The notes beneath the pieces were generated by a model. That model made no database searches and was not told the DNA's origin. It worked only from the letters and a program-made list of their open reading frames with translations. Position numbers and translations under genes: made by a program. From Candidatus Paceibacter sp. (GTDB lineage: Bacteria; Patescibacteriota; Patescibacteriia; SG8-24; DYFX01): a stretch of DNA of 45,808 nt. The DNA lies in contig DYFX01000002.1 of assembly GCA_020724945.1 (NCBI GenBank), positions 1 to 45,808 on the forward strand, written 5' to 3'. Of this stretch, positions 1 to 16,977 are shown in pieces (position 1 is the stretch's first letter; each line of letters opens with the position of its first letter).

Positions 1-893
1 CACGCCACGCCGTCGAGCTCCTTCGCGACGGCGGCGGCGAGCGACTCGCGCAGCAGGCGGTTGGCCGCGACGCCGCCGGCCAGGAAGACGGTCTTGGCCT
101 TCTTGGCGCGCGCGGCGCGGATCGTCTTCGCGACGAGCGTCTCGACGGCGGCGGCCTGGAAGGAGGCGCAGAGGTCGTTCACTTCCCGCGCGTTCCACGC
201 CTTCTTGCGCTGGAGCGTGTAGAGCACGGCGGTCTTGAGGCCGGAGAAGCTGAAATCGAAATGCGGCTTGTTCAGGAGCGGGCGCGGGAAGGCGAACTTC
301 GCGGGATCCCCTTCGAGCGCGCGCTTGGCGACGGCCGGACCGCCCGGATACTCGAGACCGAGCATCTTCGCGACCTTGTCGAAGGCTTCGCCCGCGGCGT
401 CGTCGAGCGTGCAGCCGACGAGCTCGTACTTGCCGAAGCCCTTCATCAGGATGAGTTCGGTGTGGCCGCCGGAGACGACGAGGATGAGGGCGGGCAGCTT
501 GTAGGCGGCGGCGTCCTTCGAGACATCCTTGCCGATCCAGTTGGCGGCGATGTGGCCCTCGATGTGGTTCACGCCGACGATGGGGAGGTCCCAGCCGTAG
601 GCGAGCGCGCGCGCGAAATCCGTGCCGACGCGGAGCGAGGTGATGAGGCCCGGGCCGCGCGTGACGGCGATGCCGTCGAGATCCTTCGCGCCGACGCCGA
701 GTTCGTCGATGAGGAGCGGGAGCGTCTCGGCGTGCAGGCGCGCGGCGACTTCCGGCACCACGCCGCCGTATGCGGCGTGCTTCAGGACCTGCGTGGCCGT
801 GAGATGCTTCTCGATGCGCGAAATCCCCCGCTCCACGCGGAGCAGGGCGACGGAGGTCTCGTCGCAGGATGTCTCGATGCCGAGGATGCGCAT
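1..893 (-). CDS. tsaD: tRNA N6-adenosine threonylcarbamoyltransferase TsaD (Kae1/Gcp family), C-terminus cut by window edge
   Basis: Absent from the ORF track because it runs off the window. My reverse-strand translation from ATG (cat at 891-893) reads MRILGIETSCDETSVALL...GGVVPEVAARLH...TRGPGLITSLRVG...VGVNHIEGH. This is the canonical TsaD N-terminus plus the HxEGH metal motif. Confidence 0.9.
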   Translation of the reverse strand, partial: MRILGIETSCDETSVALLRVERGISRIEKHLTATQVLKHAAYGGVVPEVAARLHAETLPLLIDELGVGAKDLDGIAVTRGPGLITSLRVGTDFARALAYGWDLPIVGVNHIEGHIAANWIGKDVSKDAAAYKLPALILVVSGGHTELILMKGFGKYELVGCTLDDAAGEAFDKVAKMLGLEYPGGPAVAKRALEGDPAKFAFPRPLLNKPHFDFSFSGLKTAVLYTLQRKKAWNAREVNDLCASFQAAAVETLVAKTIRAARAKKAKTVFLAGGVAANRLLRESLAAAVAKELDGVA

Positions 894-2509: not shown

Positions 2510-2584
2510 GGCCTCATCGTCTAACGGCTAGGACAGCTCCCTTTCACGGAGCAGATAGGGGTTCGATTCCCCTTGGGGCTACCA
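2510..2584 (+). tRNA. tRNA-Glu (anticodon UUC)
   Basis: Manual cloverleaf: acceptor GGCCTCA/TGGGGCT (with G1.U72 and U5.G68 wobbles); D arm GTCTAACGGCTAGGAC; anticodon stem GCTCC/GGAGC with loop CTTTCAC; T arm AGGGG-TTCGATT-CCCCT; encoded CCA. Confidence 0.85.
2562..2584 (+). repeat. Direct repeat copy 1 (tRNA-Glu 3' end; att-like)
   Basis: ttcgattccccttggggctacca is identical to 10209-10231. Its last 9-10 nt recur at 17096-17105. Confidence 0.9.
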
Positions 2585-2719: not shown

Positions 2720-3718
2720 TCAGCGGCCTCTCCCCAAGGGGAAAGTCGCACTCACGCCAGCGGCCTTTCCGGATATGTTCATTGTCAGAGCGCCCAGTCC
2801 CGCTCCTGCAATGACCCCGCCCACTGCTGCGGCGACGACGGCCGTGGCGGCAGCCTCGACGCCATAGGAAAATTCCGGCGGAACGAATGCGCGTCCGGCG
2901 CCGTACAGGATCGCTGACCACACGAAGCCCGCCAACGCGCCTTTTAGCCAAGCGGGCCATCGGCTCGTCATGTCCACCGCGAGTGCGGCAGCCATGACCG
3001 AGAAAACGACGAGCCAGCCCGGCGGGTGCGGATGGGGCGGAACGAGCGATGCGTTCCCGAACTGCTCGCCGAAGGTCATGGCTTGCAGCAGGAGCGAGGC
3101 GGCGGCGATCGTCATGGCGGCTCCGGGGCCCGGCATCATCCGGATCCCGACCAGGAGAATGAGCGCGAATGCCGCAGCCTGCGGAGCGGTTCCCCAAAAC
3201 CCAAGCATGTGCCACGGACCGGTCGGCAGGAAGGGCGCCAAGGGGAACATCGCCAGCTCAAGCGCGGCGGCGAGTCCCATCCCCATGAACAGGTGCTTCG
3301 AGACAGGGTCAGGATCCCGGGCAAGGATCGGAAGAAGCATCAGGAGTCCGCCCAGGAGCGCGCCGATCAGGACGAGATGCGGCGGACTCCAGACGATGAT
3401 GGGGCTGCCGATCGATTCGACTCCGAAGGCGCGGTGCCAAAGCTCGTCGAATGGCGCGGAAGCCGGAACAAGAAGCAGCACGATCGCGAGCCTCTTCCAT
3501 AAGGAAGACCGATGCTGCCACCAGCCGATGACGGCGCCGAGCACCGCCGTCATCGTCGAGGCGTACAGGAGGATGTGAGGCGGGGACCAGAAACTCTCTC
3601 GTCCGATGACGCCGTGCCACCAGGCGTCCCAAGCTCCGGCCATGACGGATACGAACAACGCACCCGTCACGAGTCGGGCCAACAGATGCTCAGCACGCAA
3701 GCGCGATAAGACGCCCAT
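2720..3718 (-). CDS. Polytopic membrane protein of unknown function with repeated W-H ... S-P-P-H motifs
   Basis: 332-aa ORF, hydrophobic throughout. Internal repeat AWDAWWHGVIGRESFWSPPH / FDELWHRAFGVESIG..WSPPH. It is the last gene of the efflux operon, 22 nt after the RND gene. Confidence 0.7.
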   Translation of the reverse strand: MGVLSRLRAEHLLARLVTGALFVSVMAGAWDAWWHGVIGRESFWSPPHILLYASTMTAVLGAVIGWWQHRSSLWKRLAIVLLLVPASAPFDELWHRAFGVESIGSPIIVWSPPHLVLIGALLGGLLMLLPILARDPDPVSKHLFMGMGLAAALELAMFPLAPFLPTGPWHMLGFWGTAPQAAAFALILLVGIRMMPGPGAAMTIAAASLLLQAMTFGEQFGNASLVPPHPHPPGWLVVFSVMAAALAVDMTSRWPAWLKGALAGFVWSAILYGAGRAFVPPEFSYGVEAAATAVVAAAVGGVIAGAGLGALTMNISGKAAGVSATFPLGRGR

Positions 3719-3740
3719 ACGTCATTGGTTACTGCTTCCA

Positions 3741-6700
3741 TTAGACATCCACCGGACCGGACGCGGCAAGAGCCGCCTTCCTCCCGAACCGATAGAACAA
3801 GGCCGGCGTCATGAAGAGCGAGATGAGCGTCGAGGACGTCAGGCCGCCGAAGATGACCACCGCGAGCGGGTGCAGCATCTCCTTTCCGGGCGCGTCGCCG
3901 GCGAGCAGGAGCGGGACGAGCGCGAGCGAGGCCGTCAGCGCCGTCATCAATACGGGAACGACGCGGTCGAGCGTCGCTTTGAGCACGGTGTCCGGCGCGA
4001 ACGGCAGCCCTTCCTTGCGGACGAGGTTCAACGAGTGGCTGATGAGCATGATGCCGTTCCGCGAGACGATGCCGGCCAGCGAGACGAACCCTACGAGATG
4101 CGCCAGGCTGACCACGCCGCCGGTCAGCCAGATGCCGATCATGCCCCCGATGAAGGCCGTGGGGACGTTCAGCATGATCTGGAGGACGGTCGGCGTCGAA
4201 CGGAAGCCGTGATACAGGACCAGGAAGATCAAGAGGAGTCCTGCCAAGAAAAGTCCCGCCAAACGGCGGCTGTTCTCTTTCTGGCTCTTGTACGTCCCCT
4301 CGAACGAGGCGGCCACGCCTTCAGGCAGTCGGCCCTTCGTCTCGATCGTACGGCGGACGGACTCCACGGCCCCGACGATATCGCGGCCCTGGTAGTTCGC
4401 GCTGACGACCAGCACGCGGCGGCCTCCCTCATGGCTCAAGCGGTTGCGACCCGATTCAAGCCGCACGTCCGCGACGTTTCCGAGCGCATCCGCGCCCTCG
4501 AACGGCAGGGATAGGTCCCGCAAGGCCTGGGCGTTTCCACGCGACATGAGGTCGTATCTCGCGACGACGTCGACGCGGGCGCTGCCGAGCTGTACCTGAC
4601 CGACCGGCGCTCCCAGGAGTCCCATTTCGAGTTCCTCGGCGACTTCTCCGCTCGAAAGGCCGAGGTCGGCCAGACGGTTGCGATCGGGATAGATGCGGAA
4701 TTCCGGCACGAGCACCTCGCGCTGGATCTGGGCGTTCTTCACGCCATCGCGTTTGGCCAACTCGTCCCTGACGGCGCTCGCCGCCTGTCGGAGCGCAGGA
4801 AGGTCATCGCCGAAGAGCTTGACGACGATCGGCGCGCGGATGCCGGAGAGCAACTCTTCCAGCTTGTGGGTGATGGGCTGACCGAGGCTGAAATCCGCTT
4901 CGGTGAAGGCGTCCAGGACGCGCTGGATCTCGCCGAACAGCCGTTCGCGCTCTTTTTCGAGACCCGGTTCGAAGGCGACCTGGATCTCGCTCGAGTTCGC
5001 CCCGCTGTCGTGCGCGTCCGCGCCGGCGCGGCCGGTCGAGTGACTCGCCCGCCGAACGCCTGGGACCTTCCGAATCGCCTCTTCCACCTTCGAGGCATAC
5101 GCGTTCGAGGTCTCGACGTCCGTGCCGACTGGCATGACCGCGCTGATCGTGACCGATCCTTCGTTGAAGGGCGGGACGCCCTCCTTGCCGGCGACGGCAT
5201 ACAAACCGGCGGCCGCGACGATCGTCAGGGCGACGGCGGCCATGAGCGGTTTCGGATTGGCGATGCTCCATCGGATCGGCGGCGTCATCTTCCGCTTCAG
5301 CCAGCACACAAAACGCGTCTCTTCTTCGTGACTCTTGGTGTTCGGCTTGGTCAGGAGGATGGCGCACAGCGCCGGTGTCAGCGTCAGCGACACCACCATC
5401 GAAGCGACGAGTGAGACGAGGTAGGCCAAGCCGAGAGGCGCCAGCAGTTTTCCCTCGACGCCGGGGATGAAGAACATCGGCAGGAAGACGATGGCCACGA
5501 CGACGGTGGCGTAGACGATCGAGTTCCGCACCTCGCTCGAAGCGCGGAAGATGATCTCGTCGGGCGATTCTTTCATGCCGCCCTGACGCCATTCCCGCAG
5601 ACGGCGGAAGACGTTCTCGACGTCGACGATCGCGTCATCGACAAGCTCGCCGATCGCGACGGCCAGGCCACCCAGCGTCATGACGTTGACGGACAAGTCC
5701 ATCGCCCGGAAGACGATGGCCGTCACCAGGAGGCTGAGCGGGATCGCCGTGAGCGTGATGATCGTCGTCCTCACGTTCATCAGGAAAAGGATCAGGATGA
5801 CGATGACGAGCAAGATGCCGATGAGGAGCGCCTCGATCACGTTATCCAGGCCCGCTTCGATGAACCATTCCTGACGGAAGAGATCGTTCTTGAGCTCGGT
5901 GCCGGCGGGCAAGCTGGCGTGAAGCGATTCGAGCGCTTCGTCGACCGCCTCGGTCACCGCCAGCGTTTCCGCGTCCGGCTGCTTCACGATGCGCATGATG
6001 ACGCCGGGCTTGCCGTCGATCGTCGCCGAACCGCGAACCGGGCTGGGCCCTTCGATGAGGGCTGCGACGTCGCCCAAACGGATCGGCTGGCCGTCGAAGC
6101 TGCCGATACCAAGCTGTTCAAGTTCGCTCACTTCCGATGGGGCGAGCATGATGCGGATCGGGTATTCTTTCCGATTCTGGACGAGAATGCCGCCTCCGCG
6201 GTTCTTGAGCGACCCCTCGACCTGCGTGACGATGTCCTCGATGCGCAGATCGAATCTGCGCATCCTCTCGGCGTTCATGCTGATCTGCCATTCGCGCACG
6301 TCGCCGCCCATGACGATGACGTCGGAGACGCCCGGCACGCGCAAGAGGGCGGGCCGGATCGTCCAATCCGCGACAGTACGAAGGCGCATCCCGTCGATCG
6401 ACGGGTCGGTGGCCGTGAGGCCGGCCCACATGATCTCGCCCATGATCGAGGCGACGGGACCGAGCACCGGCTTCACGTCTTCCGGAAGGTCGAGCTGGGC
6501 CAGGCGCTCCTGGATGATCTGTCGGTTGCGATAGAGATCCGAGCCCCATTTGAATTCCGCCTGGACGATGGCCAGACCGAACGAGGCCGTGCCTCGCACG
6601 CGTTCGACGCCGGGCGCGCCGGCGACGGCCGCCTCAATCGGCGTCAGGATCAGGCGCTCGATCTCCTCGGGCGCGAGGCCTTCTCCTTCCGCGAAGACGG

Positions 6701-10202: not shown

Positions 10203-11726
10203 TCAGGTTTCGATTCCCCTTGGGGCTACCAAAAGGGACTCTTCCGCAAGAAGAGTCTCTTTTAGTTGGAAGATTGGCGACAATTCCGTAGTTCCAAAAT
10301 TTTCTCCATCGAACGGTATCTTGTTCTTGAAAATCAACTGCTGGAACTGAACGCGCGCCTGGGGGTTGCTTTCAAGTTCCAGCCAGGTTTTTGTCGCCTT
10401 GCCCACAAATTCGAAGCAATACCCCAACGCCTGCTCCATATTGAATTCGTCGTTTCGATGATCCTCTATCAATACATACTGCTCATCCAATTGCCGACCG
10501 ATGACGGATTTCTGTTCCTTAAAATCCTCGTCTGAGTAAACGCCCGATCGGTGCAGTTCAAACACTCGCTGCCTATCCAGTTCTAATTTCTCAATCGCTC
10601 TCCTGACAGAGGCTCTTTGAGCGTCTAGGTGCTTGTGCCTCGTTTTCCAGATATCAATGACAACTGCCTTAAACAGCTTTTCGAACTTTGGGTTGGGCGT
10701 GATTTTTTCTAACCGCTCCAAGAACGCTCGTTCAAATTTTTCTTTCGCAATAGACCTCGATTTTGAACAACCCTTCTTTGAGTGGTGGTAATAGGGGTAT
10801 TTCTTGCCCTTGTAACCGCGCGTGGCGCTACCCGACAGGGGTGTGCCGCATTCAGAACAGACAACAAATTTTCTCAAAGGGAATGTCGGGTTCTCCGCCG
10901 TTCTCCGTTTTGACCAACTCGAGTATCCGGGCTTTACCTGACAGGCTAAGAACAGCTGGCGCGGAACTATTGGTTCAAAGCCTCCAGCCCATTCTCCTCC
11001 GAATGCCTTAATGACGCCGCAGTAGACTGGATTAATGAGCATCTTTTGGACCTCCTGGTGTTTGATGGGTTTCCCACGCCGCGTACGCAGACCCTGACGC
11101 GTCCAGAAGGCAGCCAGGGCCTTGTAGGTGCGCCCTCCCTTGGCGTACTCCTCAAAACCAGCCCTTACGAGCGGGGCCTTAACTGGATCGGGAACGATAT
11201 TGGTCTTTTTGCCCCGCATCGGTTTGTAGTAACCAAGCGGGGGCGTCCAAACCCAATACCCTTCCCGTACTCGTTGAATCATCCCGCCTCGCGTCCTTTC
11301 TGTCCGTACATTGTTGTCGAATTCAGCGAATCCGGCGATAACTGTCTCCATTAACCTTCCGGTTGCGGTTTCATTTATCGGCTCTGTAACTGAACGCAGA
11401 GCCGTACCGACCTTGTTCAAGACGGCGCGGACCGTCAAATGATCTTCTGCCTTCCGACTAAAACGATCGAGTTTGTAAACAAGGAATATGCCGATGCGCC
11501 CTTTCTTTGCGGTGCAGTAATTGATCGCCTTGGTGAACTCGGTTCTGTCGGAAGTCTTTGCTGATTCACCCAACTCCACAAACACCTCGGCCACCTCCCA
11601 GTCTTGCTTACCTGCGTATTCCCGACACAGTTTTTCTTGGGTCTCCAAGCTAGTTCCTTCAACCTGCTCTTTCGAAGAAACTCGGCAATAAATTACGCAC
11701 GTCGCCTTGGTCGGAATTTGATTCAT
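10203..11726 (-). CDS. Large serine recombinase (resolvase/invertase N-domain + recombinase domain + zinc ribbon)
   Basis: 507 aa. Catalytic segment VIYCRVSSKEQ, then LVYKLDRFSR and a Cys-rich ribbon CSECGTPLSG...YYHH. The last 9 codons run into the tRNA-derived repeat. Confidence 0.9.
   Translation of the reverse strand: MNQIPTKATCVIYCRVSSKEQVEGTSLETQEKLCREYAGKQDWEVAEVFVELGESAKTSDRTEFTKAINYCTAKKGRIGIFLVYKLDRFSRKAEDHLTVRAVLNKVGTALRSVTEPINETATGRLMETVIAGFAEFDNNVRTERTRGGMIQRVREGYWVWTPPLGYYKPMRGKKTNIVPDPVKAPLVRAGFEEYAKGGRTYKALAAFWTRQGLRTRRGKPIKHQEVQKMLINPVYCGVIKAFGGEWAGGFEPIVPRQLFLACQVKPGYSSWSKRRTAENPTFPLRKFVVCSECGTPLSGSATRGYKGKKYPYYHHSKKGCSKSRSIAKEKFERAFLERLEKITPNPKFEKLFKAVVIDIWKTRHKHLDAQRASVRRAIEKLELDRQRVFELHRSGVYSDEDFKEQKSVIGRQLDEQYVLIEDHRNDEFNMEQALGYCFEFVGKATKTWLELESNPQARVQFQQLIFKNKIPFDGENFGTTELSPIFQLKETLLAEESLLVAPRGIET
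10209..10231 (+). repeat. Direct repeat copy 2 (orphan tRNA-Glu 3' fragment; attL-like for the low-GC element)
   Basis: 23/23 identity to 2562-2584. The sequence upstream of it is not tRNA-like. Confidence 0.9.
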
Positions 11727-12024: not shown

Positions 12025-12110
12025 GCTATGCGCATTCGCCCATCCAAGTATTCAGTTGTGATGTCAGTATGAATGGAGGCGAGAAACCCTGCAAGTGATC
12101 GGTTTTTTCA

Positions 12111-12150
12111 CCCAAATCCATCCAAATCCAGACAATTCCAGACAATATCC
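12111..12150. repeat. Four 10-bp phased units (2 x YCCAAATCCA, 2 x GACAATWYCM)
   Basis: cccaaatcca|tccaaatcca|gacaattcca|gacaatatcc, read directly from the sequence, in the divergent intergenic region. Confidence 0.7.
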
Positions 12151-12166
12151 CCATATAACCCAATAC

Positions 12167-12227
12167 TTTTTCCCACCATTTCCCACCCACTGCCCCACTC
12201 CGCCATTCCACCTTTTTCCACCATTTC
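12167..12227. repeat. Direct repeat TTTTTCC(C)ACCATTTC x2, enclosing a C-run/G-run quadruplex-type motif
   Basis: Copies at 12167-12182 and 12213-12227. C3-N7-C3-N1-C3-N4-C4 at 12172-12196, which is a G4 motif on the minus strand. Confidence 0.6.
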
Positions 12228-12265
12228 TGTTTCCATTAGTTTCCAATACCTCGCGCCTTAAAATA

Positions 12266-12293
12266 TTGTCATTTCGGTTAATCCTGCTAAGCT
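12266..12293 (+). promoter_or_regulatory. Candidate promoter for the structured leader / cargo operon
   Basis: TTGTCA (12266-12271), 16-nt spacer, TAAGCT (12288-12293). The predicted start lies at the 5' closing helix of the structured RNA. Confidence 0.4.
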
Positions 12294-12296
12294 AGC

Positions 12297-12478
12297 AGCA
12301 CAACTGAATGCCTAACCCCTGCAATCACCGCAGGGTATGGCAATAAACCCGACCAAGGCACTAACCCCGTCGTTAGCAAGCCTTGGTCGGTCGTATCCCG
12401 AAAGGGGTACGTTGGGCGAAAGCCCACAAGCTAGCGGCGGGTTTTGTGCTAAAACGCCGCGCCTAACCGACCAAGGCT
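12297..12478 (+). ncRNA. Candidate structured cis-regulatory RNA (riboswitch-like or attenuator-like leader), family not recognised
   Basis: Five local hairpins, two of them capped by GAAA tetraloops (12393-12410, 12413-12426). Long-range pairing 12297-12303/12444-12450. The 11-nt segment gccttggtcgg (12380-12390) can pair with either of two identical ccgaccaaggc copies (12349-12359 or 12467-12477); the latter abuts the ATG at 12479. Confidence 0.5.
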
Positions 12479-12808
12479 ATGAAAATCTATTTGTGGTTCC
12501 TGAGCCATTCTAAACAAACCAGAACGCTTATAATCCTCTCCGTTGCACTCCATCTACTAAACGCCATTCTAGGGCCACTGGAAGGCCGCAGGACGCTCTC
12601 GGCACTCGTAGGGCGTATCCTGGGTGGGTTCATTGGCACGTTCACCCCCGTCTTATTGAGCTCAATGATTATCGCGTTCCTGCCCTATATGGTTTTTCGC
12701 AGCGTCGCTGAGAAATACAAGCGATATTTGGACTATCTCTCAGTTATCCTTTTCCTTGTCACAATTTTGTTGGGTTGGGCTAGGATACGCTTGGTGGCAG
12801 GGGTGTAG
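12479..12808 (+). CDS. Small three-TM membrane protein, unknown function
   Basis: 109-aa ORF with three hydrophobic helices. AT-rich codon usage matches the island. It is followed by hairpin atggcga/tcgccat (12837-12859). Confidence 0.55.
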   Translation: MKIYLWFLSHSKQTRTLIILSVALHLLNAILGPLEGRRTLSALVGRILGGFIGTFTPVLLSSMIIAFLPYMVFRSVAEKYKRYLDYLSVILFLVTILLGWARIRLVAGV

Positions 12809-12876
12809 TAAATTACATATAAGCCATACTATGTTGATGGCGATGCTCAGCGTCGCCATTTCTATATAATCAGCAA

Positions 12877-15800
12877 ATGTCGGAAAAGTACCCATACAAA
12901 AAAAGCCAGCTGAAACGGCTTGGGCAAGCCGCGAAGTTAGCTGGTCCTAGATATACGCCTGAGCTTAATGTTGGCGTAGGAATCAGTTCAATTTTCGAAG
13001 GTCTGGGCAGGACCGAGAAATTTTATACCGAACTTAAGAAATCACTGCCCGATCTTGTCAGGCACATCCAGTACGTATCAAAACCCGAGATTGATATTGT
13101 GGCACACGATGAGCTTGTGGCAACCACCACGACGGCTCAGAAAGTGGCGGATTTACTTCTGCGAGTACCCGTTAGCGGAGTTAATAAAATCGATTCAGCG
13201 ACTCTTCATAAGCTCTGCGATTCTGGGATGACCCTAGTTAGAAACCTGATCTCGGTCCTACAAAAAGACGAGAGGGTTTCAAACGAACCGGGATCGAAGG
13301 ACCCAAACGGCACTAAACAGCAAAGTGAAAAGCACAGGTCTCACATCCACGATCTTTGGAAGATTTTTGATGCCCTGCATTCAATTTCGGTTTTCGTTGA
13401 GAGCTTGGTCGTACAAGCAGCAAATTCTCCCCAAGTTTTGCTCACGGGTGCCGCTGGTTCCGGCAAAACACACTTTCTTTGTGATCTAGCTAAGAAAAGA
13501 ATTGAGGCTGGATTTCCAACATATATTTTTCTTGGTGAGGAGTTTTCAGAATCCAGAAAGCCACTTAATACAGTAAAAAAGTTACTTGGATTCAAGGGGG
13601 GTGACGGTGCGTTTCTTGAATCAATTAATCGGTATGCCGCAAGCAAGCGTGTTCGGGCCGTGATCATCATTGATGCAATCAATGAGGCGCAAATCCGTGG
13701 AATTCGTTGGGATCAGCTCTGCAAGGTCAACCAATACAATAACCTCGCGGTTATTATCAGTGTAAGAACGGGCTTCGAGCAGCAGGAAGTGCCAAAAAAA
13801 ATTCTTGATGGTTTTTTAAAAGTTACCCATCGTGGATTCGTGGGGAACGAGTGGGAAGCTTATGCAAAGTTCTTTTCTAAGTCCGGTCTTCCGCTCCCAG
13901 AAACCCCGCTTCTTACACCCGAATTCCATAACCCGCTTTTCCTTAAAATATACTGTTCCGCCGCATCTAAAGCTCCGAACCCAGTCAGGGGCAACTACGG
14001 TTTCAGGTATATATTTGAGAAGTATGTTATTGCACAAGGAGAAGGTGTTCTTAAACAACTCGGTGAACCAGGTCAAAGTAATAGGCGAGTCTGGGATGGT
14101 GTTATCAAGGAAATCGCTCTAGAAATGGGTGACAGCGGGTTAGATAGACTCCACCAAAAACGAACGACTTCTATCGTTGCGAAACAATTCCCTGGTAAGG
14201 CAAGGGATGCGATCGTGGCACTGGAAAAACAGTTTCTGCTTATTAAAGTGCCTCGTTATAGGAGATACAAAATAGTGGGGTACGACTACAGATTCCCTTA
14301 CGAAAAGTTTAGCGACCACCTGATAGTACGCGCACTAATTAATAAATACCTTGATAAGACAAACCCGAAGAAATCACTGATTCCTGGTACAAAGCTTGGA
14401 GAAATCATTCGACGAGATCGGAATTACGGCTTGATCGAAGCCCTCGCAATTCAAATTCCACAAGACCTGAAGGGTCGAGAGTTGGTATATGTCGCACCAA
14501 AAAAATTCCGCTTCCAGAGCTACGCAAGAAATTCTTTCTTGGAAAGTTTGATTTGGCGCGATTTGTCAACACGTTCAAACGGGCAACACAAGTTCATTAA
14601 AACCAAACTGGTTCTAGATTTTATTAATAAATATCTACTTCCATTTGAACGAGGAAAGGAGAGCGTTTTGGAAGTGCTTCTTACTGTTGCTGCGGTTCCA
14701 GAGCATCCTCTGAACGCGCACATTTTGCATAAGCATCTATTGCGTATGCCTATGCCGAAGCGCGATGCATACTGGCTGCCATTTATCAATGAACGCTATG
14801 CCAACGAAAGCATCTTTGATAGGTACCTGGCTTGGGCGTGGTATGGCGGCGATAAAACAAAGATATCGGAAGAATCGGTGGGTTTGGCAGCAACGGTATT
14901 ATCGTGGTGCTTAGCAAGCTCAAATCGCTTTCTGAGAGATCGTGCCACGAAGGCCTTGGTATCAATACTCTACTCAAGACCGGAGGTTTTGTTACGTCTA
15001 TTGAAACGCTTTGAGTTGGTGGATGACCCATACATACAGGAGCGTCTTTTCGCAGTAACTTATGGCTGCATTCTTCAGGTTGGTGTACCGAGAGCAGGTG
15101 TTTTGCAGCTGGCCCACTACACATATGAGCGTATTTTCAAAAAGGGTGCGCCGCCCAAACATATTCTTTGGCGCGATTATGCAAGAAATATTGTCGAAAC
15201 AGCTGCCGCTATCGATCCAGCCTTTGAAGGCAAGGTTGATTTAAGAATGGTCCGCCCACCATATCGAAGTAGATTTCCTACGAAGGTTCCATCTACTGCG
15301 GTACTTAAAAAGAAATATTACCGTGATTATCGCAAAAATAAATCAAGGAGGGGCGATTACAACCAGATATGGTTTTCTTTGATGTATAACAATGGAGGGT
15401 CTATCGCGGATTTCGGGAATTACATTGTGAACTCAACCGTCGGTAATTGGTGCAATTTGCGTCTGAAAAAGAATGGGCAGCCCCCAAAATTTCCAAAGCA
15501 AATCTCAAAGGAGTTCGAAGAAAGTCTTGATGAGTTTTCTAAAAAAATTTGGGCGAGACTTGAAGAGGCTCGTCAATCTATAGCTACGCGAAGATTGTTT
15601 GAAGACTTACCCGTAAAGCTTGGAACGCCTCCCAAGAAAACTGGGACAAGTAGCAACGATGGAATCGAGATAAAGGCCCGAGAGTTGATTCTAAATGAAC
15701 TTGAGCGCTCATTTATTAATACGCTGGACCCGCACCAGAGGAATTTGTATAGAAAGGGCATTCTGAAAACGCGTGAAGGTCGATGGAATTTAGAGATTGA

Positions 15801-16977
15801 TCGCGCTCTCGTACAAAGAATAATTTTCACGAGGATTATCGAGCTTGGTTGGAATCCGAGACTATTTGATAAGTATGACGGTTCGGTGCGAGAAAGAGGT
15901 AGAGACGCCCATAAAGCTGAGAGAATCGGCAAAAAATATCAATGGATCGCCTTCCACGAAACCCTTGGGTTGATTGCTGACAATTTTGCGTTGCGAGACG
16001 GGTTCAGTGATGAAGGCGGGGGCGATTATCAAGGGGCTTGGCAGATTTGGCGGCGCGATATTGATCCAAGCTATATCGTGCCACCTAGTTTTGCACTGCC
16101 ACCTAAAGCTGTTCGCCCCTGGTGGTCACCCTCAAACTATAGTAGCTGGAGGTTGGGGTTAGGACACACTGAATGGACAAAAATAACTGACGATTTGCCC
16201 CAACAAAGAAAATTGCTTGAAATCAAAACAAACGGTGGGTGGTTGCTGTTAGACGGGTATCTCGGTTGGGATCAGCCGACCGCTCCGGGCATAGATCGAT
16301 ATGATGCTATACGCCGAAATGTCTGGTATCACATACACAGTTATCTAATCAAAGCCGATAAAGTAGGTGAGATTTTGGATTGGGCTAAAAAACAGAATTT
16401 TCTGGGGAGATGGGTGCCAGAGCCTCTGGAGCTGAGAGATGTTTTCATTCGAGAGATACCGAATGGTTTCCCCTATCAACACCAATATGGTACCGCGAAA
16501 GATGTTGGATGGCGCAAAGTCACAGAAAAGGTTGGGAGGGAAGAGGTATTTGAAGTTATTGTAGCCGCCGAGGAATACCATTGGGAGGGTGGTGGTTTTG
16601 ACTGCTCACTCAACGATGGCGTAATGATTCGGGTTCCCTGTAAGGAGATTGTTTCCGGAATGAACTTATCGCAAAGCCAACGGCTAGGTACCTTTGTTAA
16701 TGCAAATGGAGATGAAATTATCCAAGATGTCGCCGCCGAAAGTGTTGAGAAAAGCGCCCTGCTAATTAAAAAACGACCGTTCTTGAAGTTTCTTGAGGAG
16801 AATGGCTACGCATTGCTTTGGATTACTTTTGGAGAAAAATTGTTACTAGGGACGGCTGGAGGTGGTCAAGGATTTTTAGGACGACTGGAGGTCGGCGGCG
16901 CACACATACTTTCGAGCGAAGGGCGAATCTTTAGCCACGAGTACACTAACTGGTCACCACCCCACACCAAAGGTTGA
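12877..16977 (+). CDS. 1366-aa STAND/NACHT-like P-loop NTPase with HEAT-like repeats and unassigned N- and C-terminal domains
   Basis: Walker A GAAGSGKT (aa 191-198, nt 13447-13470). Walker B AVIIIDAINE (aa 261-270, nt 13657-13686). Downstream strand AVIISVRT. NACHT-like HNPLFLKIYC (nt 13927-13956). HEAT-like SNRFLRDRATKALVSIL...DDPYIQERLFAV (about nt 14917-15081). Confidence 0.8.
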   Translation: MSEKYPYKKSQLKRLGQAAKLAGPRYTPELNVGVGISSIFEGLGRTEKFYTELKKSLPDLVRHIQYVSKPEIDIVAHDELVATTTTAQKVADLLLRVPVSGVNKIDSATLHKLCDSGMTLVRNLISVLQKDERVSNEPGSKDPNGTKQQSEKHRSHIHDLWKIFDALHSISVFVESLVVQAANSPQVLLTGAAGSGKTHFLCDLAKKRIEAGFPTYIFLGEEFSESRKPLNTVKKLLGFKGGDGAFLESINRYAASKRVRAVIIIDAINEAQIRGIRWDQLCKVNQYNNLAVIISVRTGFEQQEVPKKILDGFLKVTHRGFVGNEWEAYAKFFSKSGLPLPETPLLTPEFHNPLFLKIYCSAASKAPNPVRGNYGFRYIFEKYVIAQGEGVLKQLGEPGQSNRRVWDGVIKEIALEMGDSGLDRLHQKRTTSIVAKQFPGKARDAIVALEKQFLLIKVPRYRRYKIVGYDYRFPYEKFSDHLIVRALINKYLDKTNPKKSLIPGTKLGEIIRRDRNYGLIEALAIQIPQDLKGRELVYVAPKKFRFQSYARNSFLESLIWRDLSTRSNGQHKFIKTKLVLDFINKYLLPFERGKESVLEVLLTVAAVPEHPLNAHILHKHLLRMPMPKRDAYWLPFINERYANESIFDRYLAWAWYGGDKTKISEESVGLAATVLSWCLASSNRFLRDRATKALVSILYSRPEVLLRLLKRFELVDDPYIQERLFAVTYGCILQVGVPRAGVLQLAHYTYERIFKKGAPPKHILWRDYARNIVETAAAIDPAFEGKVDLRMVRPPYRSRFPTKVPSTAVLKKKYYRDYRKNKSRRGDYNQIWFSLMYNNGGSIADFGNYIVNSTVGNWCNLRLKKNGQPPKFPKQISKEFEESLDEFSKKIWARLEEARQSIATRRLFEDLPVKLGTPPKKTGTSSNDGIEIKARELILNELERSFINTLDPHQRNLYRKGILKTREGRWNLEIDRALVQRIIFTRIIELGWNPRLFDKYDGSVRERGRDAHKAERIGKKYQWIAFHETLGLIADNFALRDGFSDEGGGDYQGAWQIWRRDIDPSYIVPPSFALPPKAVRPWWSPSNYSSWRLGLGHTEWTKITDDLPQQRKLLEIKTNGGWLLLDGYLGWDQPTAPGIDRYDAIRRNVWYHIHSYLIKADKVGEILDWAKKQNFLGRWVPEPLELRDVFIREIPNGFPYQHQYGTAKDVGWRKVTEKVGREEVFEVIVAAEEYHWEGGGFDCSLNDGVMIRVPCKEIVSGMNLSQSQRLGTFVNANGDEIIQDVAAESVEKSALLIKKRPFLKFLEENGYALLWITFGEKLLLGTAGGGQGFLGRLEVGGAHILSSEGRIFSHEYTNWSPPHTKG

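Follow-up and report, generated by a model that had tools for sequence, protein, structure and literature searches.

A LOOT RNA in an Avs2 defence island of Candidatus Paceibacter: a probable pseudoknotted leader whose main helix may compete for a start site

We analyzed a stretch of 45,808 nucleotides (nt) from Candidatus Paceibacter sp. (assembly GCA_020724945.1, contig DYFX01000002.1, positions 1 to 45,808; hereafter the window) and in particular the segment upstream of orf109, a small open reading frame (ORF). It is a real structured RNA with strong support and adds a member to the known LOOT family. The helices of LOOT and a pseudoknot reaching beyond its Rfam model covary among relatives, the RNA lies directly upstream of an ORF, and in the window and a subset of relatives a copy of one arm of the main helix, P2, abuts the start codon of that ORF. 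We consider it somewhat better than even (probability about 0.55) that LOOT is a structured, cis-acting, pseudoknotted 5' leader of orf109, perhaps also of the Avs2 gene behind it, in which the 3' arm of P2 competes for the start site.

LOOT was described as a metagenomic motif (Weinberg et al., 2017, PMC5737381; Rfam 14, PMC7779021). Its structure was amended in Rfam 15 (PMC11701678), and 28 'cross-covariations' have made it stand out as an oddity (PMC7657543). We found no report of a function for LOOT in the literature searched, which did not cover the supplement of the discovery paper, including any remark on a pseudoknot there, and we therefore compared about 240 LOOT loci, with subsets of differing size for the individual tests. 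The relatives were collected with a DNA pattern derived from the Rfam consensus, which gave more than 120 listed loci each in genome and metagenome collections. Most of the 80 genome records listed were metagenome-assembled genomes (MAGs) of Patescibacteria, and 16 of 19 loci tested exceeded the Rfam threshold for LOOT. The search pattern fixes CCUAA, YAUGG, GAAA, and GNAA, so the invariance of these nucleotides in our alignments is by construction; the same letters are also upper-case in the Rfam consensus.

The original prediction described a leader RNA that matched no known riboswitch or ribozyme consensus and named assignment to a known family by Infernal as an outcome that would speak against it. 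Such an assignment was obtained. Positions 12309-12427 of the plus strand match LOOT (RF03000) over the full length of the model (1-121 of 121) with 87.2 bits, compared to a gathering threshold of 46.4 (E = 2.8e-15, cmscan), and a scan of the region with E up to 1 gave no other Rfam family. Helices P1, P1a, P2, P3, and P4 can all form in the window and were found to be 91-99.8% paired with two-sided changes in 96 relatives. All conserved nucleotides of LOOT are present, namely CCUAA (12311-12315), YAUGG (12336-12340), the AAA of J1/2 (12345-12347), GU (12390-12391), the GAAA of P3 (12400-12403), and the GNAA of P4 (12418-12421). The inner 8-bp P2 helix of the Rfam model has mismatches in the window; its nucleotides show covariation with the 3' strand of the pseudoknot described below, and only a single covarying pair supports a local inner P2 hairpin in the relatives.

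The structural elements that had been read from the sequence were all found where they had been placed, including the three occurrences of CTAACC (12312, 12361, and 12463), which are three of only six in the whole window. The segment 12297-12500 folds to -87.5 kcal/mol compared to a mean of -61.5 kcal/mol for shuffled sequences (z = -5.8, none of 200 shuffles as good), and the predicted minimum free energy structure includes the hairpins first described. Conservation sorted these pairings. P1a, P2, P3, P4, and the pseudoknot covary both in an unfitted MAFFT alignment of 147 diverse sequences and in a second, largely model-independent set of 96 sequences. The stem ctaac/gttag inside P2 is present in the window, but it is paired in only 18% of cells in the 147 homologues and overlaps the conserved pseudoknot strand, and it was rejected as a conserved helix. 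The closing helix between the 5' end and a downstream loop (agcacaa/ttgtgct) is likewise present in the sequence, but in 114 homologous loci it scores -2.8 kcal/mol compared to -2.9 kcal/mol for permuted pairs, and this candidate was also discarded.

The helices differ in how they tolerate change. In the 96-relative set P2 is paired in 92.9% of cells with two-sided changes at 10 of 11 pairs. G-U pairs and other mismatches make up 1.6% and 3.9% of cells in P2, 18.4% and 1.1% in P3, 15.9% and 0.2% in P4, and 24.4% and 3.4% in the pseudoknot core. The abundance of G-U pairs in P3, P4, and the pseudoknot (16-24%) identifies the plus strand as the functional strand, as had been proposed. The P2 arms are maintained as exact complements, which is not fully explained. 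The 5' arm of P2 is purine-rich or resembles a Shine-Dalgarno sequence in 46% of loci, compared to 9% for the 3' arm.

P1 contains an internal loop which we take to resemble the 11-nt GAAA tetraloop receptor. The canonical receptor, CCUAAG...UAUGG, occurs in group I and group II introns and in RNase P. In LOOT the loop reads CCUAAA/CAUGG or, as in the window, CCUAAC/UAUGG, and P3 carries a GAAA loop; CCUAA, YAUGG, and this GAAA are in upper-case letters in the Rfam consensus. The closing G.U of the receptor is replaced in LOOT by a covarying pair at positions 8 and 28, which is A.C in 100 sequences, C.U in 39, and some other combination in 8. P4 is capped by GCAA, GAAA, or GUAA across the family.

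The Rfam model ends at 12427; the 3' pseudoknot strand, a U-tract, hairpin P5, and the start-site copy all lie beyond it. Conservation in the 34 nt beyond this end, with the consensus CGCTGGCGGnGGGCTTTTTGT, equals that of the core. They contain the 3' strand of a pseudoknot whose 5' strand lies in the apical part of the P2 hairpin (Table 1). In the 147 sequences 94.2% of the cells of its 8-bp core were paired and 7 of 8 pairs were doubly changed; in the 96-sequence set, whose model structure did not contain the pseudoknot, the corresponding values were 96.6% and 8 of 8. Shifting the partner by 1-3 columns lowered pairing of the whole counted structure to about 40%. In the window the duplex 12366-12377:12430-12441 has an energy of -21.2 kcal/mol. 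An extended covariance model scores the window at 117.9 bits compared to 87.2 bits for the Rfam core, and it found 93 full-length copies (85-143 bits) in the 98 sources searched, most of them in loci not used for building the model.

The pseudoknot strand is directly followed by the U-tract, in which T at 12443-12445 and 12447 is at least 90% conserved in the 147 sequences. This may be a terminator-like tract or a tertiary contact. A terminator scan found no intrinsic terminator at 12430-12450, and the helix preceding the U-tract is a pseudoknot with strands about 52 nt apart, not a short-loop G+C-rich hairpin. The hairpin noted earlier at 12434-12460, here P5, is part of the predicted fold and is enriched in relatives, but it is one of two alternative pairings of its 5' strand, for which the conserved partner is the P2 apical loop. 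Own-locus pairing of the P5 type at -12 kcal/mol or lower was found in 50% of 205 loci, compared to 26% with permuted partners (Wilcoxon p = 4.5e-8).

The position of the RNA directly upstream of an ORF holds across the family. In 182 of 184 loci the strand that carries LOOT has an ORF of at least 50 amino acids starting with ATG behind it, and the ORF starts 20-80 nt after the Rfam 3' end in 153 loci (83% of the 184), compared to 20% within 60 nt for random positions. Upstream, at least 117 of 200 loci had the pattern ACA[AG][CT]TNA, usually 9-25 nt before LOOT, and ACAATT and ACAACT were counted 84 and 49 times near LOOT compared to 4 and 3 times in the farther flank. Where a -10-like TAnnnT is present (97 loci), it ends most often 6-7 nt upstream of this motif. 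The motif is probably at or near the 5' end of the transcript, and transcription in the window probably starts near 12298-12300. The downstream ORF together with the conserved promoter-proximal motif makes LOOT look like a 5' leader.

The first genes behind LOOT are diverse. The 182 downstream ORFs fall into 136 clusters, 114 of them singletons, and 59% have membrane-like or signal-like segments, a pattern which orf109 fits, as the first ORF is hyperdiverse and often membrane-like. Some of the ORFs open with motifs that we take to be DNA methyltransferase N-termini. A riboswitch would be expected to precede a consistent functional class of genes, and 136 clusters among 182 ORFs do not form one; with such diversity the downstream genes also offer no hint of a metabolic ligand. 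Between orf109 and the start of Avs2 the plus strand of the window has a hairpin resembling a terminator (12838-12855) and, at about 12863-12868, a perfect TATAAT, and Avs2 may therefore have its own promoter independent of the LOOT leader.

The second copy of ccgaccaaggc at 12467-12477, one nucleotide before the ATG at 12479, was verified in the sequence. Three segments can pair perfectly with the 3' arm of P2: the 5' arm at 12349-12359 (11 bp), the start region at 12466-12478 (13 bp), and positions 11704-11714 of the recombinase mRNA (11 bp). Only four exact copies of the 11-mer exist in the window, the three described originally and the one at 11704-11714 on the minus strand; we estimate that about 0.02 extra exact copies would be expected by chance. 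A copy of the 12-nt P2 5' arm with at most two mismatches was found in 20 of 217 loci, in all of them 34-52 nt after the Rfam LOOT end, while controls with the upstream flank and with the reversed query gave 3 and 1. With G-U pairs allowed, 19 loci reached at least 11 of 12 pairs with their own downstream region compared to 2.5 expected by permutation. The 16 loci with at most one mismatch carry 14 distinct P2 arm sequences, and in 10 of 13 scorable loci the ATG of the ORF follows the copy by 0-4 nt. The competing pairing of the proposed switch thus recurs with different sequences, but it is limited to about 8-15% of loci, where the copy is found 34-55 nt past the Rfam end. That the P2 3' arm generally pairs with the start region, at every LOOT locus, was rejected, as there was no excess beyond this subset. 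Elsewhere in the loci P2-arm copies were at background level; the excess of 37 matches to a locus' own arm over 18 for permuted arms is explained by the start-site class plus two recombinase matches. In the window the copy is preceded by GCCTAACC (12461-12468), which is identical to the P1 5' strand (12310-12317), so that the downstream segment looks like a P1 5' strand fused to a P2 5' arm. At other loci an A-rich, J1/2-like stretch takes this place before the copy.

Table 1. Features of the LOOT RNA and its surroundings in the window.
Feature	Position	Strand	Basis or remark
Large serine recombinase, divergent from LOOT	10203-11726	-	Pfam Resolvase, Recombinase, Zn_ribbon_recom
Fourth ccgaccaaggc copy, possible trans target of P2 3' arm	11704-11714	-	Recombinase codons 5-8
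Putative promoter: -35 TTGTCA (12266-12271), 16-nt spacer, extended -10 TGcTAAGCT (12285-12293)	12266-12293	+	Sequence
5' leader motif ACAAYTNAAT (here ACAACTGAA)	12300-12308	+	Family conservation
LOOT core (P1, P1a, P2, P3, P4)	12309-12427	+	Rfam RF03000 match
P1 internal loop CCUAAC/UAUGG	12311-12316/12336-12340	+	Encloses P1a (12317-12335)
P1a hairpin	12317-12322/12330-12335	+	Sequence
P2 5' arm ccgaccaaggc, start-region mimic (putative anti-sequestrator)	12349-12359	+	P2 covariation
Pseudoknot 5' strand cccgtcgttagc, apical part of P2 hairpin	12366-12377	+	Covariation
P2 3' arm (a)gccttggtcgg(t), multi-partner strand (putative sequestrator, anti-start-site)	12379-12391	+	Sequence pairing
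P3, 8-bp hairpin, GAAA loop	12392-12411	+	98.9% paired, 8/8 pairs doubly changed, 18% G-U
P4 hairpin, GNAA loop (GAAA here)	12412-12427	+	99.8% paired, 5/5 pairs doubly changed
Pseudoknot 3' strand gctagcggcggg, outside Rfam model	12430-12441	+	Covariation with 12366-12377
P5 hairpin gcggcg/cgccgc (12434-12439/12455-12460)	12434-12460	+	Alternative partner of pseudoknot 3' strand
U-tract ttttgtg (family consensus CUUUUUGU)	12442-12448	+	Directly 3' of pseudoknot strand
Start-region copy (a)ccgaccaaggc(t), then ATG (12479-12481)	12466-12481	+	Exact repeat, copies in other loci
orf109, hydrophobic 109-amino-acid ORF, putative regulated gene	12479-12808	+	ORF list
Avs2-type STAND NTPase, island cargo	12877-16977	+	PADLOC Avs2, 1109 bits, profile 178-1497 of 1504

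The two conformers of the window have similar predicted energies. Conformer A, with P2, is predicted at -87.5 kcal/mol, and conformer B, in which the alternative helix ALT (12379-12391:12466-12478, 13 bp) forms together with the compatible P5, at -84.4 kcal/mol, a difference of 3.1 kcal/mol. Among 16 relatives, predictions favored P2 in seven and ALT in five, and four were mixed or intermediate. A riboswitch would be expected to have alternative pairings that connect its structured domain with the start site or a terminator, and two sets of alternatives are predicted here, P2 against ALT and the pseudoknot against P5.

These data are compatible with the following mechanism. LOOT would adopt a compact fold made up of P1 with its receptor-like loop, the tetraloop-capped P3 (GAAA) and P4 (GNAA), the long P2, and the pseudoknot, which would link the P2 apical loop to the strand just 3' of the Rfam model. 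In conformer A, which we infer to be the ON state, P2 and the pseudoknot would be formed; because the 5' arm of P2 holds the 3' arm, the start-region copy would be free and ribosomes could start at 12479. In conformer B, by the same inference the OFF state, the P2 3' arm would pair with the start-region copy, the pseudoknot 3' strand would be taken up in P5, and the start site would be buried. The exchange could be triggered by the kinetics of folding, by Mg2+ or temperature, by a protein, or by a small ligand stabilizing the pseudoknotted fold. As judged from sequence comparison, the idea of a switch is partly supported, functionally unproven, and not general for the LOOT family.

Several observations weigh against this reading. 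Outside the subset of about 8-15% of loci there is no excess complementarity between P2 and the start region, and occlusion of the start site is therefore not a general function of LOOT. Prediction with a nested model, in which the pseudoknot is not yet counted, puts conformer A at 94% in the window, and the OFF state may thus be rarely populated. Only 2 nt separate the AAGG in the copy from the ATG, less than a canonical Shine-Dalgarno sequence would need. For LOOT neither a ligand nor a signal is known, which leaves the label of riboswitch unproven. A strict sigma-70 scan accepted no promoter at 12266-12293, since the -10 element matches at only 3 of 6 positions. orf109 had no homologue among 5.8 billion proteins and is not called in the JGI annotation of the 119-kb metagenome contig that contains the window, where both small ORFs of the island are uncalled. 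P2 is nearly free of G-U pairs (1.6% compared to 16-24% elsewhere), which a simple RNA-helix model does not predict. Finally, Rfam types LOOT as a small RNA (sRNA) gene of metagenomic origin, whereas the copy in the window is a leader in a serine-recombinase defence island of a high-GC bacterium.

The leader can be compared to several known systems. Like translational riboswitches and RNA thermometers, LOOT has a structured 5' domain in which one strand pairs either internally or with the initiation region, and two nearly isoenergetic states are predicted; unlike them it comes without a ligand, an identified binding pocket, or a conserved class of downstream genes, and the start-site pairing is confined to a minority of members. 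In the hok mRNA, with its fold-back elements tac, ucb, dcb, and fbi, and in the leader of the MS2 maturation gene, kinetic folding controls translation. LOOT is similar in that mutually exclusive long-range pairings would decide access to the start site and in that the order of transcription would favor the open state first, but there is no homology in sequence or structure, and at LOOT there is no evidence for 3' processing or an antisense RNA. The bridge RNAs of IS110 elements are likewise structured non-coding RNAs with a variable helix beside a recombinase gene. The neighbor of LOOT, however, is a large serine recombinase with Resolvase, Recombinase, and Zn_ribbon_recom domains and not a DEDD/IS110 enzyme, the variable arms of LOOT match start codons and not element ends or targets, and no 11-mer was found at the island borders.

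A broader version of the leader model extends it to a second target. LOOT could be a programmable riboregulator with the P2 3' arm as a seed re-tuned in each element, the 5' arm as a decoy, and the pseudoknot and receptor fold locking or releasing the seed. Once free, the seed would silence the first cargo gene in cis and, in the clade of the window, the recombinase mRNA in trans. We regard this as possible, at about one chance in four in our judgment. The match to recombinase codons 5-8 is exact in the window, and in the closest recombinase relative, locus L006, the locus' own and different P2 arm matches with one mismatch at +5 of the recombinase ATG; such a match is absent from the other 85 recombinase loci. 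The recombinase start region (11704-11726, minus strand) also contains AAGGCTGTATG, which resembles AAGGCTATG of orf109, so the P2 3' arm could pair with the Shine-Dalgarno region of the recombinase over 6 bp.

It is unlikely, and slightly more so, that LOOT is a stand-alone, trans-acting sRNA of about 150 nt which ends at the pseudoknot and U-tract and uses the P2 3' arm as a seed for the starts of orf109 and the recombinase. The Rfam type ('Gene; sRNA'), the near-invariant U-rich tract directly after the pseudoknot 3' strand, as in intrinsic terminators, and the 61% co-occurrence with serine recombinases would fit, as would the exact 11-nt match in the divergent recombinase mRNA and its analogue in L006. 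The seed would be buried in an 11-bp helix, however, and the recombinase match is missing from the other 85 recombinase loci just mentioned. With the next ORF 20-80 nt after the core in 83% of loci, and only about 0-45 nt after the U-tract, a separate promoter would not fit in between. The helix that precedes the U-tract is moreover a pseudoknot with about 50 nt of intervening hairpins, in which the terminator scan found no canonical hairpin. Some of the data agree with this explanation, and it may hold alongside the leader model should the U-tract be an attenuator.

LOOT could also be a constitutive structural leader without a switch, either a compact 5' domain stabilizing the mRNA against 5'-end-dependent decay or one that acts on RNA polymerase to give processive antitermination, as with put RNA, and thereby allows variable cargo to be expressed, with the start-site copies as by-products of local duplication. 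We find this less probable again than an sRNA. It agrees with the promoter-proximal position, with conserved nucleotides that mainly build the fold (the receptor-like loop, the GNRA loops, and the pseudoknot), and with hyperdiverse downstream genes (136 clusters among 182 ORFs), which would suit a portable expression module; the extension of the copy into J1/2-like and P1-like sequence in some loci is also what a duplication would give. A neutral copy, on the other hand, would neither stay within one mismatch while the arms diverge (14 sequences in 16 loci) nor always abut the ATG, and the alternatives of P5 and pseudoknot together with the nearly isoenergetic P2 and ALT point to switching.

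That the 11-mers act as DNA, either as four protein-binding sites (for the recombinase, directionality factor, or repressor of the element) or as the folded single-strand origin of some integrative replicon, with the P2 RNA helix incidental, is very improbable. In its favor, P2 behaves as an exact inverted repeat (1.6% G-U and 3.9% other mismatches, compared to 16-18% and at most 1% in P3 and P4), the four exact copies are divided two per strand, RepSA/G2P-type replication initiators are encoded at some loci, and the GCGAAAGC found in P4 makes a very stable mini-hairpin as DNA. Against it, covariation in P1a, P3, P4, and the long-range pseudoknot comes with abundant G-U pairs on the plus strand only, a signature of RNA or at least of a single strand, and the extra copies lie at start codons, away from promoters and the ends of the island. 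The integrated island contains an uninterrupted LOOT, and P2 is therefore not the attP of this island; for the window we rejected both this role and that of a guide for the island ends, as no copy of the 11-mer lies at the borders.

The LOOT leader lies in a low-GC island of about 7 kb (about 10.0-17.0 kb, 44-51% GC) inside DNA of 64-70% GC. The island contains the serine recombinase, an ORF of 93 amino acids, LOOT, orf109, and the Avs2-type STAND NTPase. The Avs2 homologue aligns only from profile position 178 of 1504 and seems to lack the usual N-terminal effector region; as a speculation, orf109 could be a separate membrane effector beside it. The recombinase is closest (52% identity) to that of L006, a MAG of Candidatus Doudnabacteria (Patescibacteria), and together with the low GC content of the island in a high-GC genome this suggests transfer from a very different gene pool. 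A tRNA-Glu (UUC) gene at 2510-2584 (plus strand) is about 7.5 kb from the island and not at its borders. Between LOOT and the recombinase operon, in their divergent promoter region (12109-12248, plus strand), there are three pairs of adjacent 10-bp direct repeats, CACCCAAATC/CATCCAAATC, TTTCCCACCA/TTTCCCACCC (with a third copy at 12214), and GTTTCCATTA/GTTTCCAATA, spaced by 10 bp like protein-binding iterons.

Of 242 LOOT loci, 98 have a homologue of the window recombinase; where both flanks extend for at least 2.5 kb, the share is 37 of 61 loci (61%). As in the window, the recombinase is usually upstream and divergent (74 loci). At 39% of the well-flanked loci no such recombinase was found within 5 kb. 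Other recurrent neighbors in Pfam terms were DNA methylase, DUF5659, AAA_25, and a RepSA/G2P-type initiator, along with genes that we take from their sequences to be tyrosine-integrase-like and terminase-like, named without a family scan. The recombinase and these other neighbors indicate that LOOT marks integrative mobile elements.

Some contigs carry two or three LOOT copies (L004, at 3618-3776 (+), 4260-4412 (-), and 401-522 (+); L233; L179), and L004 has two full copies in facing orientation, separated by about 480 nt. A DUF3800-IX RNA (RF02968), an orphan motif of the same discovery study, was found at 4866-4936 (-) of locus L034, about 3.5 kb from its LOOT copy. Three pattern matches (L003, L029, and L065) proved not to be LOOT. 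No match was found when 12250-12520 was compared to plasmid and phage collections by blastn. A first DNA pattern based on P3 and P4 alone gave two viral contigs, neither of them LOOT; the final pattern gave one viral match in IMG/VR, which the extended model did not confirm, and LOOT was thus not found there with that pattern.

Altogether, LOOT has been an ornate orphan RNA known from comparative genomics, with no function published in the literature searched. The present analysis adds its genomic home, which is integrative elements with large serine recombinases, mostly in Patescibacteria; its occurrence in a minimal Avs2 defence island of a high-GC host; a covarying 3' pseudoknot and U-tract that are absent from the Rfam model; and a concrete proposal for a mechanism, a leader RNA whose main helix competes for the start site of a cargo gene. 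Should the mechanism prove false, the extended alignment still adds about 30 bits to the family model. If the programmable riboregulator were true, cargo expression would be coupled to integration and excision, and the scarcity of G-U pairs in P2 would reflect a need for balanced strand exchange between identical partners. If the start-site mechanism is true, LOOT would be a portable translational control module for the cargo of mobile elements, such as defence genes and DNA methyltransferases, and could be a compact natural scaffold for engineered switches.

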